Assembly: GCA_963848295.1 (NCBI GenBank)
Contig: CAWKDB010000010.1
Coordinates: 672,001-736,000 of the forward strand
Direction of reading: 5' to 3'
Source: an uncultured delta proteobacterium
GTDB taxonomy: Bacteria > Myxococcota_A > Polyangia > Haliangiales > Haliangiaceae
Length of the DNA: 64,000 nucleotides
The notes under the pieces: generated by a model
What the model was told of the DNA's origin: nothing
The model's input: only the letters and a program-made list of their open reading frames with translations
Databases searched by the model: none
Shown here: one piece after another, positions 53,601 through 60,170 of the stretch
How positions within the stretch are numbered: the first letter of the stretch is position 1
How the letters are laid out: the number at the start of each line of letters is the position of its first letter
Translations under genes and position numbers: made by a program

Positions 53601-53782
53601 GCGATGATCAGGCGAATCTGATCGTTCTCGAGGATGAAGTCGCCGACCTCGCCGACCGCGTGCGGCCCGCCGATGACCTCCTCGAGCTTGCCGATCCGCT
53701 GGGCGCGCGACTGCGGCGCCTGCGTACCGCACGTCGCGAGCGCGATCACGATCGCGGCGCCGCATCCGGCTCGCAAGATCAA
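50676..53782 (-). CDS. CehA/McbA-type PHP metallohydrolase lipoprotein with carboxypeptidase-regulatory-like domains, indels near 51590 and 50700
   Basis: VSRGPEYE, ADFHIHAQPSTDS, ATDHN, GMELT, GHF, AHPR, GASDSH, AMTNPIWVD. Confidence 0.85.
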
Positions 53783-55035
53783 AGCGAGACCTCCGCGGCG
53801 AGCTGCGCGCGATCGTTCGCGAGCTCGCGCCCCGGTTGCTCGTCGACGTGGGTCAGCTCGAGCTGCAATCGCATGCGCAATCGTGGCACGCCGAGCACCG
53901 CGCCGATCGTGTGCTCGATCACGCGGTCGGTCGTGATCAGGCTCGACGGATCGAGGATGCCGAACCGATAACCGACCGCGACCGGCAACGCGGCGGGAAT
54001 TCGAACCATCGCCTGGGCGTGCGCGCCGTACGCGTCTTGCGCGGGCCCGCCGGTCGTGTCGAACGTCGTGTGCTCGGCGACGAGCCCGCCGCCGAGCGAC
54101 ACCGGCCCCAGGCCGAGCTGCGCTCCGAACGCGCCCTGGTAGTCGGTCTCGTCCTGGCGAAACGGCAGCGCACCGATCGTGCGCGGGTTGTAGCGCCCCG
54201 ACGCGACGAGCCACGAGTCGTGCGGCAGGCGGAGCAGCGCGGTCGCCGACAGTGCGAGCGAGTTGTTGTCGTTGTTCGACGAGAACTCGTCCGCGCCATT
54301 CTGCGCCGCGACCTCGAACCCGAACCGCGCGCCCGAGGTCGGCACTTCGGGGTCGAGCCGGATCGCCGCGCCGATCGATCGGCCCGGCGGCAACCCCGGC
54401 GTCTGGTAGCCCTGGGTCGGCAGCACGCCGCGGCTCTCGATCGGCCGGTCGACGAACGCGCGCGACGTATCCGGAATCTGCGCCTCGGGATCGACGAGCG
54501 CCTGGAAGTAGCCGCCGCGGCCGGTGACGTCGCCCGCGATCCGGGCGTCGACGTACGCGTCGCGCAGGCCGACCGCGATGTTGCCCTGCGGCGAGTTGAT
54601 CTGCGTGCGCTGATCGACCGCGCCATCGAACGACACGACGAACGCCGCGATGTTCCCGAGCTTGCCGCGGGCGCCGACGCGCGCGTTCTGCAGCTCGAAG
54701 CCGTCGTCGCGGCCGATGTACTCGACGTTCGGATCGGCCTGGATCGCGATGTACTGCAGCCGGATGAAGCCGAACGGCTGCCACGAGAATCCGGTCGCCG
54801 GCGCGACCGGCTCGGGCGGCGGGCGGTTCGCCTCGCTGTTGGCCGGGACGCGTTCGGCCGGCGGAACGGCCGGGGCCGGCGCGGCGTCGCCCGGCTTCGA
54901 CTCGTCGCTCGGAGGCTGCGTCTCGCCTACCGGCGCGGGCGCGACGGGCCCCGCCGGTTGCGCGGCGACCATGCGCGGAACGAGCAGCGCGGCGCCGAGC
55001 ACGGCGCCCTTGAACAGATGGCGTTGTGCGATCAC
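53779..55035 (-). CDS. Outer-membrane porin-like beta-barrel
   Basis: Signal peptide, Pro-rich linker, FGFIRLQY, GFELQNARVG, LRDAYVD, terminal AQLAAEVSL. Confidence 0.8.
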   Translation of the reverse strand: MIAQRHLFKGAVLGAALLVPRMVAAQPAGPVAPAPVGETQPPSDESKPGDAAPAPAVPPAERVPANSEANRPPPEPVAPATGFSWQPFGFIRLQYIAIQADPNVEYIGRDDGFELQNARVGARGKLGNIAAFVVSFDGAVDQRTQINSPQGNIAVGLRDAYVDARIAGDVTGRGGYFQALVDPEAQIPDTSRAFVDRPIESRGVLPTQGYQTPGLPPGRSIGAAIRLDPEVPTSGARFGFEVAAQNGADEFSSNNDNNSLALSATALLRLPHDSWLVASGRYNPRTIGALPFRQDETDYQGAFGAQLGLGPVSLGGGLVAEHTTFDTTGGPAQDAYGAHAQAMVRIPAALPVAVGYRFGILDPSSLITTDRVIEHTIGAVLGVPRLRMRLQLELTHVDEQPGRELANDRAQLAAEVSL

Positions 55036-55099
55036 GTGGCGTCGAGCGTAAACGCAACGCCGCGTGCGGAGCGTGGCGCTGGCGTGAAATCGCCGCTCT

Positions 55100-55324
55100 T
55101 TAGAGGTTCATGATTCGCCTCGTGCTCAACGCAGCGGCGGTGTCGTTAGGCCGGAGCGAACCAATCGCGAGCGAGCGGCCGCAGCGGGGTCGGGTGTTCA
55201 ACGCGATGCTCTCGGCGGCGCGGCCGATCTCGTCGGCGAGCGACTTGCGGCGCGAGCGCAGCTTCGGCTCGATCGGGGCGAGCTGTTCGAGGACGGTGAG
55301 CGATTGAGCGAGGACATCGAGCAT
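55100..55324 (-). pseudogene. Truncated four-helix-bundle protein, paralog of 55957..56280
   Basis: MLDVLAQSLTVLEQLAPIEPKLRSRRKSLADEIGRAAESIALN, similarity ends near 55196; GAAAGG RBS. Confidence 0.8.
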
Positions 55325-55353
55325 GGCGTGGCCTTTCGTGGATGAGCGGACGC

Positions 55354-55542
55354 CCGACTCGCCGGGGCCGTCTCGCCCCGTCGCGCCGCACTCGCGCCGG
55401 CGCCGTGACGAGCGCGGGCACAGATCTCCGCACGCGTCGGTCGATCCAACTCTGCGGCGGCCGCTCGCAGGCGTCGGTGGTCCCCGGCGCTCGGCGCGGC
55501 GCTGGCGCGAAGCGGCGCAGGGCGACGGCCCCGGCGAATCGG
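55354..55542 (-). ncRNA. Putative structured leader (long hairpin), copy A
   Basis: Outer arms CCGATTCGCCGGGGCCGTCGCCC / GGGCGAGACGGCCCCGGCGAGTCGG; homologous to 55739..55935. Confidence 0.6.
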
Positions 55543-55562
55543 AAGCCGCGAGGGCGAAAGCT

Positions 55563-55709
55563 GGCGACGGCGGCGGCATCGGCAACGGCATCGGCAACGG
55601 CATCGGCGACGGCTACGGCGACGGCTACGGCTACGGCTACGGCTACGGCTACGGCTACGGCTACGGCGTCGGCGTCGGCGTCGGCGGCGGCTACGGCGAC
55701 GGCGGCGGC
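55563..55709. repeat. Hexamer tract (GGCNNC)n with a (GGCTAC)n core
   Basis: GGCATC/GGCAAC/GGCGAC/GGCTAC/GGCGTC units read directly. Confidence 0.95.
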
Positions 55710-55738
55710 TTTAGAACCCTCGATGCTCCTTCGCTCGC

Positions 55739-55935
55739 GCCGATGGGCGGAACGTCTCTCTCGCCCTGCGCCGCTTCGCGCTTGTCCCGCGCCGAGCGCC
55801 GAGTGCGCCGGCGCCTGCGATCGATCGCCGCGGAGTTGATCGGCCGGCGAGGGCGGTGGCCAGCGCCCGCGCTCGTCACGGGACCCGCGCGACTGCGGCG
55901 CGACGGGCGAGAGAGAGACGTTCCTACCCATCGGC
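55739..55935 (+). ncRNA. Putative structured leader (long hairpin), copy B
   Basis: Outer arms GCCGATGGGCGGAACGTCTCTCTCGCCC / GGGCGAGAGAGAGACGTTCCTACCCATCGGC; ends 21 nt before the ATG. Confidence 0.65.
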
Positions 55936-55956
55936 CACTCACTTCGGAGGATCACC

Positions 55957-56280
55957 ATGTCGTTCTACGCCCTCGACTTCGCCCTCGCCGTCCTGCAGCA
56001 GCTCGCCCCTGTCGAGGCCAAGGTGCGCCGCACGCGCAAGTCACTCGCCGACGAGATCGCCCGCGCCGGCGAGAGCGTCGCGCTCAACCTCAGCGAAGGC
56101 CGCATGCGCGTCGGGCTCGATCGCCCCGACTTTTATCGCCGCGCCGCCGGCAGCGCGAGCGAGCTCACGACCGCCCTCCTGATCGCGCGCGCCCGCGGCG
56201 TCATCACCGCCGAGGACTTCGCGGCGGTCGACGAGCCGCTCGACCACGTCCGCGCGATCCTGTGGCGGCTCACGCACTGA
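55957..56280 (+). CDS. Four-helix-bundle protein (TIGR02436 / 23S-IVS / Avd-like), intact
   Basis: GGAGG RBS; LADEIARAGESVALNLSEG, FYRRAAGSASELTTAL, LDHVRAILWRL. Confidence 0.9.
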   Translation: MSFYALDFALAVLQQLAPVEAKVRRTRKSLADEIARAGESVALNLSEGRMRVGLDRPDFYRRAAGSASELTTALLIARARGVITAEDFAAVDEPLDHVRAILWRLTH

Positions 56281-56393
56281 GCTTTCGCGCCGGCCAACTG
56301 ATTTCGGCACCCTTCGCGCAAAGCGCACGACGGTGCGAAGCGGCCGGCGACGCCAGGCGTAAGCGGGCTGTCGGCGCCAGAACGTCGCCTCGC

Positions 56394-56520
56394 GGCTACG
56401 GCAAACGGAGACGGACACGAATACGGATCCGGCAAACGGAGACGGCTACGGCAAACGGATACGGATACGGATACGGCGAACGGCTACGGCTACGGCTACG
56501 GCTACGGCTACGGATCCGTC
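56394..56520. repeat. Hexamer tract (GGCTAC/GGATAC/GCAAAC/GGAGAC units)
   Basis: Same orientation as 55563..55709. Confidence 0.9.
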
Positions 56521-56549
56521 CACGGCCCCGGCCGCTGCTCAGAGACGCG

Positions 56550-58457: not shown

Positions 58458-60169
<1,712 letters not shown>

Positions 60170-60170
<1 letters not shown>

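Follow-up and report, generated by a model that had tools for sequence, protein, structure and literature searches.

One family of hairpins is common to two unrelated multicopy genes of soil myxobacteria: it stands at the start of genes for four-helix-bundle proteins and at the ends of genes for HNH nucleases. The family is real and conserved, and apparently undescribed. We give about an even chance to the reading that mobile cassettes have in the hairpin a REPIN-like, polarised, folded-DNA end, which the HNH protein probably nicks and which no recognised transposase serves. Stand-alone genes for PF05635 four-helix proteins and HNH genes of the DUF222 type form two large orphan families that are multicopy in many bacteria, with no known route of spread. 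The hairpin common to both supplies a defined substrate and a candidate enzyme, together with full sites and their matching empty ones; if the HNH protein moves hairpin-ended units, this would be a transposase-free route of mobility.

The two-gene cassette and its copies

The window, a 64,000-nt stretch of the genome of an uncultured delta proteobacterium (G000; 85% complete), had been reported in a first-pass annotation to carry two rod-like hairpins upstream of two divergent four-helix-bundle genes. We confirmed both hairpins, as well as their distances of 29 and 21 nt from the ATG codons (55324 on the minus strand and 55957 on the plus strand, respectively). The region of hairpin A (window 55323-55548, minus strand) folds at -153.5 kcal/mol (z -6.64) and that of hairpin B (window 55735-55960, plus strand) at -146.4 kcal/mol (z -6.66); in each case none of 200 shuffled sequences was as stable. 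The core blocks common to the two hairpins, the exchange of a GTCCC/GGGAC helix for GCGCC/GGCGC and the C-A and C-T mismatches kept in both are likewise seen in the sequence. The locus has the following features.

55091..56549, no strand: whole insert, as compared with the empty site in sister genome G105, which has 7 unrelated bases there
55091..55195, no strand: 105-nt replacement for the left repeat array and for the 3' portion of gene A
55196..55324, minus strand: four-helix-bundle gene A, truncated to about 43 of its 106 codons; the open reading frame continues to 55100
55332..55338, minus strand: ribosome-binding site of gene A; predicted pairing partner 55555-55560 (pair probability 0.69)
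55354..55542, minus strand: hairpin A, with invariant core halves at 55487-55496 and 55406-55415; 123.7 bits with model R1
55568..55711, plus strand: middle hexamer array, (CGGC-NN)n, 24 units of 7 kinds, different in each copy
55739..55935, plus strand: hairpin B, with invariant core halves at 55790-55799 and 55869-55878; 152.3 bits with model R1
55946..55950, plus strand: ribosome-binding site of gene B, GGAGG; predicted pairing partner, here and in most copies, 55726-55729
55957..56280, plus strand: gene B, intact, four-helix-bundle protein of 107 aa (PF05635/TIGR02436)
56393..56516, plus strand: right hexamer array, oriented as the middle array and ending about 35 nt short of the stop of the convergent host gene

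The hairpins had been placed correctly, but the fold reaches further than described, to an extra 5' tract able to pair with the ribosome-binding site in the predicted fold (CTTTCG/CGAAAG in A, CTCC/GGAG in B). Both hairpins have the GA bulge that follows GGGCGA and had been taken as a shared trait, but among relatives its length and letters vary; the general trait is instead a surplus of bases on the 3' arm (170 extra bases, against 51 on the 5' arm, in the 32 stems analysed below). Only one of the two genes proved whole. Gene B passes PF05635 (45.3 bits, cut-off 33.8) and TIGR02436 (45.4 bits, cut-off 24), and a PDB sequence search with the four-helix protein gave 2GSC as its sole match (E 6e-4). 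Gene A is broken after about 43 codons: family likeness ends at about 55196, and the frame then runs through unrelated DNA to a total of 74 aa. No second good copy of the 105-nt stretch was found elsewhere in G000 (best E 0.014), and gene A is intact, with 106 aa, in the nine remaining two-gene copies of that genome. This truncation, the copy number, the empty sites and the second cargo all go beyond the first-pass annotation.

The cassette runs from gene A through hairpin A, a hexamer array and hairpin B to gene B, and has further arrays on its outer sides. It is present in G000 as ten dispersed copies, the leaders and genes of which are 89-100% alike. Three other forms occur once each in that genome: a back-to-back pair that has diverged, a unit on its own and a deleted unit. 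Scoring 150 candidates in G000 with the covariance model gave 23 whole hairpins, 23/23 of them directly before a four-helix gene. The four-helix genes of the cassettes are under purifying selection (pN/pS among the copies of 0.18 for gene B, 10 genes, and 0.14 for gene A, 9 genes; pS 0.16-0.18). Homology between copies begins at the hairpin base, and the hairpins face away from the middle of the cassette, their direction following the cargo and not the nearest host gene. The junctions are ragged, filled with repeats and located beside host stop codons, and in 10/10 cassettes a host stop codon points in on at least one side. Neither a sigma-70 promoter pattern nor a U-tailed terminator pattern was found in the cassette. 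A second genome, G053, has its own recent tenfold set of back-to-back pairs, in which a long-class hairpin is combined with a short-class one. One possible origin of the back-to-back form is the junction of a circular intermediate.

Four-helix units often occur in facing or back-to-back pairs, usually of two different subfamilies (loci L044, L074, L012, L013, L060, L319 and L327). Downstream of the single cassette at C10:1111377 of G000 (L041) there is a tandem repeat of about 145 nt in at least four copies.

Comparison with sister genomes revealed sites without the cassette. In G105, which is about 90% identical to G000, the counterparts of window 53780-55090 (91%) and 56554 onward (89%) adjoin on contig C988, with 7 bases where the window has 1459. 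The same genome is also empty at the position of the C10:4854k cassette, and another, G102, is empty at C11:317k; decayed remnants are retained by G105 at two further shared sites, one of which is empty in G102. At the window site both flanking genes lie together in one of 19 loci and in no outgroup, which leaves gain in G000 or loss in G105. We saw no target-site duplication at three empty sites, and only unpositioned 8-10-mers in the two-ended elements described below. In addition, the left flank of the C2:610k cassette is joined in G105 to the right flank of the C11:442k cassette, with 12 nt between two stops, which implies that cassette copies in G000 have recombined. Judged from these junctions, recombination between cassettes has evidently rearranged the G000 chromosome, the C2:610k and C11:442k flanks being swapped relative to the sister genome (locus L411).

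The hexamer arrays of G000 read CGG-C-N-N and all lie on the strand of gene B; CGGC is fixed, and the last two positions are even over A, G and T and poor in C. The lower strand of the hairpin folds best as DNA, as would the msd of a retron, given retron anatomy. Together with the sharp 5' border at the hairpin, the ragged ends and the location at transcript ends, these traits would fit movement through RNA, in which a reverse transcriptase acting in trans, with help from the Avd-like protein, copies the unit and the arrays are adenine-mutagenised or slippage products; the kinship of PF05635 with Avd, as given in PMC10053308, points the same way. We nevertheless consider such a route very unlikely, as the three reverse transcriptases above cut-off in G000 look group II intron-like (two read directly, one by its intron context) and none lies beside or after any hairpin in this genome, arrays of other lineages keep fixed A or T positions, and 150 of 284 array units repeat one of the two units before them. 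No template repeat was found for the arrays that vary at two C-poor positions in G000, and adenine mutagenesis as a general origin of arrays was rejected outside that genome. Binding of the fixed motif by a ring-shaped pentamer, with a free spacer, may be one candidate reading of the arrays.

The same CCG-based type of hexamer occurs elsewhere: a Ser/Thr kinase gene in the window (58458-60170) encodes Ser-Pro, Thr-Pro and VATPSP repeats with it (window 59650-59950), and 61 CCG-based hexamer loci lie apart from cassettes, many of them in protein linkers. At L335 (G005 C74) and L330, tandem partial copies of the hairpin 5' arm replace the hexamer arrays just outside the hairpin.

The hairpin family and its second cargo

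The hairpin is a 190-base palindrome with the invariant core YGCCGAGCGC ... GCGCTCGTCA, and it precedes four-helix genes across the genus. The proposal that its structure is under selection was borne out in 23 sequences, where 11 of 25 pairs have changed on both sides. The covariation score was 0.308, as compared with 0.086 for shuffles (0/500) and at most 0.123 when slid, in a test whose shuffles ignore kinship and whose structure was derived from those same 23 sequences. The apex measures 68-72 nt in 79 of 81 hairpins (search range 63-77) and, in a short class, 34-39 nt in 22/22 (search range 30-45); this tightness comes partly from hit selection, since both searches bounded the length. No Rfam family matched the hairpins (best 16.5 bits, E above 3), in agreement with the first-pass annotation, which recognised no described motif. 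No description of hairpin or cassette was found in the literature, where motif tables in RNA-discovery supplements could hold one. Beyond the genus, covered through 41 relatives picked by protein, four-helix genes of other families gave no match to the hairpin model in the fetched loci. Unpublished genomes G010 and G066 were excluded from alignments and counts, except the 61-genome HNH tally and two other tallies; the local profile for spotting four-helix genes included two G010 proteins.

At L008, L010 and L030, which belong to other families or lineages, the four-helix genes lack the core and yet follow a long hairpin; that of L008 covers the ribosome-binding site and ends at the start codon.

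A scan with a 19-letter pattern, the hits of which are mostly chance (a score above 40 bits was reached by 6 of 120 loci from genomes and by none of 20 from viruses), revealed hairpins without a four-helix gene, located beside an HNH gene of about 400 codons. Of 61 genus genomes, 52 have this gene (50 of 59 when the two unpublished ones are set aside), and the tested protein is above the Pfam cut-off for HNH and below that for DUF222 (18.5 vs 24.4 bits). Among 103 hits of the hairpin model, a set that contains two duplicates, is not an unbiased sample and counts two hits as both four-helix and HNH, 51 have a four-helix gene within 200 nt. An HNH gene lies on the 3' side in 39 (22 on the same strand, 17 opposite and facing) and on the 5' side in none, with 1.2-1.5 kb of room for it in most loci; six hits are at contig edges. 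When 28 loci were picked by the HNH protein alone, five contained six hits above 40 bits, 6/6 pointing inward, and the remaining 23 had no hairpin above that score. The inward pointing of HNH arms is confounded with position after a same-strand host gene, the stop of which lies at most 600 nt upstream of the hairpin in 60 of 87 cases.

Five elements are two-ended, with an inward hairpin on either side from which long inverted repeats start; four enclose an HNH gene and one is empty. In all five, the best match of the left end (76-87% over 236-653 nt) is the right end of the same element. The cargo label changes seven times on the hairpin tree, which has 68 members and was built without cargo-free rows and the two duplicates; strong branches force five of these changes. 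At two loci a four-helix gene is followed by an HNH gene on one strand. A clear four-helix remnant (E below 1e-5) was found at 5 of 37 HNH-side hairpins, and the idea that all HNH arms are decayed four-helix cassettes was thus rejected.

The two cargoes are distributed separately. Three genomes, 91-93% complete, have one to four hairpins with four-helix genes and no HNH match (G051, G059 and G050); two have a hairpin and an HNH gene, with no PF05635 gene found (G003 and G005); and G004 has 71 HNH matches and one weak hairpin. No hairpin was found at the two HNH genes of G000 itself. Both genomes with tenfold back-to-back pairs, G000 and G053, hold a whole-looking DUF222-type HNH frame, those of G053 belonging to a distant subfamily (139 bits).

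These distributions bear on whether the hairpin could be a REP-like repeat of gene 3' ends that is moved by a host or third-party enzyme, with four-helix and HNH genes merely settling in convergent intergenic space. Nine of the 103 hairpins have neither cargo within the cut-offs (two have one just beyond), the G000 cassettes all abut at least one host stop, and Y1 transposases are present in nine of ten genomes examined, one such gene of G051 lying 0.5 kb from a hairpin, with a hairpin on one side. However, free hairpins are a minority, a gene being present at all 23 in G000 and at 10/10 of the long class in G053 (four-helix genes there); hairpin direction in G000 is set by the cargo, away from the middle; and the two ends of one element are the most alike. 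Moreover, the G053 expansion occurred in a genome where no Y1 transposase was found. We therefore judge a settled repeat of this kind distinctly unlikely.

Pairing pattern of the stems

The first-pass annotation had left a choice between an RNA bound by the downstream protein and a folded single-stranded DNA site. We compared 32 dereplicated stems (81 of 103 hits were parsed), which contain 1102 Watson-Crick, 17 G-T and 20 A-C appositions, and 79 pyrimidine against 11 purine mismatches. By comparison, G-U accounts for 111 of 1452 pairs (7.6%) in the tRNAs of G000, as counted by a method different from that used for the stems on 66 ARAGORN calls, some of them doubtful. One core position is C.A in 22 of the 32 stems and T-A in 10, never G-T; pairing at one core position is confined to the lower strand; and the C.T mismatch is retained in 29 of 32. 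The lower strand is the more stable one in 29 of 32 stems as DNA and in 21 of 32 as RNA, although the G-T and A-C counts do not themselves pick the strand (p 0.74). The pattern holds in both cargo classes (with the 3' arm offset by one base in that comparison). The near-pure Watson-Crick pairing, the invariant mismatches and the fixed-length apex thus favour folded DNA over RNA, namely a hairpin or cruciform whose polarity is built in.

An RNA role may be superimposed on the DNA one, because the predicted fold hides the ribosome-binding site. In predicted folds of 34 leaders, several of them near-copies, this site is paired with a far 5' partner in 20, its differing letters being matched by differing partners, and the short-class stem of G053 runs through the ATG. 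With the same-strand host stops upstream and the lack of a sigma-70 pattern in the cassette, this would fit a leader that folds in a host read-through transcript and hides the ribosome-binding site; cutting by RNase III or binding of the four-helix pentamer would then act as a switch for translation and shield the cargo, and mobility would be a question apart. Avd is reported to bind an RNA stem-loop through flipped-out bases (10.1101/2023.10.23.563531), and RNase III to cut the stems of intervening sequences (IVSs) (PMC4990558). We regard such a leader as possible, if on balance doubtful, as a full explanation: G-U is five times rarer in the stems than in tRNA and no commoner than A-C. Furthermore, RNA bound by the downstream protein is not the whole story, because the hairpin is kept in the two genomes where no PF05635 gene was found and because 17 hairpins lie on the 3' side of HNH genes with no gene behind them. 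Of the two options offered by the first-pass annotation, folded DNA fits better.

The double changes could also have arisen without selection on the structure. Template switching during replication corrects imperfect palindromes, giving double changes with no G-T step. Covariation would then be a by-product, and double changes confined to Watson-Crick pairs and stems creeping over a start codon are what it predicts. However, such correction would erase the C.T mismatch and the 3' bulges, both of which persist, and the stems are nearly invariant (the apex being variable) in G000 copies that differ by 16-18% at synonymous sites, making this origin highly improbable.

Candidate enzyme and relation to known systems

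A structure model of the HNH protein (pLDDT 88) matched a ParB-like DNA-binding domain (Z 8.9, rmsd 2.4, 97 residues aligned) and an HNH domain (Z 8.6, rmsd 2.3, 88 aligned); these Z values are middling for helical folds, that for ParB being in the range usual for helical domains. Foldseek gave no match for the protein at E 0.001. As to an encoded transposase of the DDE, HUH, serine or tyrosine type, the top matches among the folds listed were to ParB-like HTH, HNH and RuvA_C. The G000 copy at C2:385k has HNH and a C-terminal RuvA_C domain above the Pfam cut-offs. RuvA_C binds the branch-migration motor RuvB, and a nickase with a handle for RuvB would suit a four-way DNA junction. The palindrome CCCACGTGGG occurs 42 times in 18 of 28 HNH loci (L269-L298) and not at all in 19 control loci; a further 16 occurrences fall in 48 four-helix loci, and G000 has only four, two of them just upstream of its HNH genes (C2:386846 and C10:2182748). 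The palindrome resembles the core of parS, and the ParB-like domain may have its site there.

In the reading that we favour, the palindrome would extrude as a cruciform or single-strand hairpin, to which a core with an invariant mismatch, C.T when read on the gene strand and A.G on the opposite one, would give polarity. The HNH protein would nick this structure in cis where it belongs to an HNH element and in trans where it belongs to a four-helix cassette; in G000 its action would be in trans, as its two HNH genes have no hairpin found beside them. The RuvA C-terminal domain of the G000 protein would recruit RuvB, after which host repair would make a copy of the unit at another gene end. As for the four-helix protein, its role is probably that of an accessory or hitch-hiker, and the same fold, once transcribed, would damp its translation. 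In G000 two units sit back to back and would travel as one. A stronger proposal, which we put forward tentatively as it is rather unlikely, is a new class of element whose ParB-HTH/HNH/RuvA_C protein nicks cruciform ends and recruits RuvB for transposase-free copying, with the Avd-like cassettes as non-autonomous partners under purifying selection. If true, it would explain at once the spread of DUF222-HNH and of stand-alone IVS-protein genes.

Of the known systems, REPINs share the anatomy of inverted conserved halves, a fixed-length spacer, compensatory changes and two length classes, as set out in PMC3116915; the spacer is likewise loose and the dispersal extragenic. In contrast to REPINs as described there, the present hairpins are about 190 nt long, with long outer stems, are polarised and usually gene-bearing, number 10-30 copies and not hundreds, and lack terminal short stem-loops tailed with GTAG or CGTC (CGTC occurs once, within the paired core). 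The bracketing of a nuclease gene by its own palindromes recalls the REPtron, a RAYT transposase gene with its REP palindromes in PMC3733652, but the bracketed gene here is ParB-HTH/HNH, not a Y1 transposase/RAYT, and none of the nine Y1 matches in G000 is beside a hairpin.

The IVSs of 23S rRNA (S23p, 2GSC) have the same protein family, a long stem, short tandem repeats and an affected ribosome site (PMC4990558). Our hairpins, however, lie between protein genes, with the gene after the hairpin and not in its loop, and the four-helix genes are under purifying selection, unlike the IVS frames, for which that paper reports decay. Diversity-generating retroelements (DGRs) likewise place a four-helix-bundle relative, Avd, beside a structured non-coding stretch, although the Avd-bound element (10.1101/2023.10.23.563531) is an 11-bp stem-loop and ours a 190-nt rod. 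Unlike in DGRs, no DGR-type reverse transcriptase stands alongside in G000 and no template/variable repeat pair was found there; unlike in retrons (msDNA), no reverse transcriptase follows any G000 hairpin and Rfam gave no match. The arrays resemble VIPR vrRNA in alternating a fixed GGC-containing motif with a variable NN, a resemblance only. VIPR combines a RAMP-fold protein with GGY/NN RNA of period 5 (10.64898/2026.04.26.720920), whereas the arrays have a period of 6, their NN form runs and the accompanying protein is a four-helix bundle.

DUF222/13E12-repeat HNH genes (PF02720 with PF01844) are also multicopy with no known mode of spread, and no paper was found that gives them structured ends; many homologues carry PF02720, whereas the tested protein is below the DUF222 cut-off and many carry RuvA_C. 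Integron attC sites have R''/L''/L'/R' boxes, RYYYAAC...GTTRRRY ends and a cassette array with an integrase. In contrast, the invariant columns of the hairpin contain no such boxes, and its copies are dispersed and not arrayed. As in classical insertion sequences and MITEs, there are terminal inverted repeats in the five two-ended elements of relatives, but the repeats of the window cassette point outward from its middle, and no target duplication was seen.

A second four-helix subfamily of G000 has its gene enclosed by terminal inverted repeats, ATGCCGCTCAGATAA ... TTATCTGAGCGGCAT, and CTAG follows a few bases beyond them. Copies are located at C2:271071-271457, C2:797125-797505, C10:3467518-3467898, C10:2646874-2647473, C10:4056238-4056570 and other positions, and several of them are invaded or abutted by pieces of group II introns.
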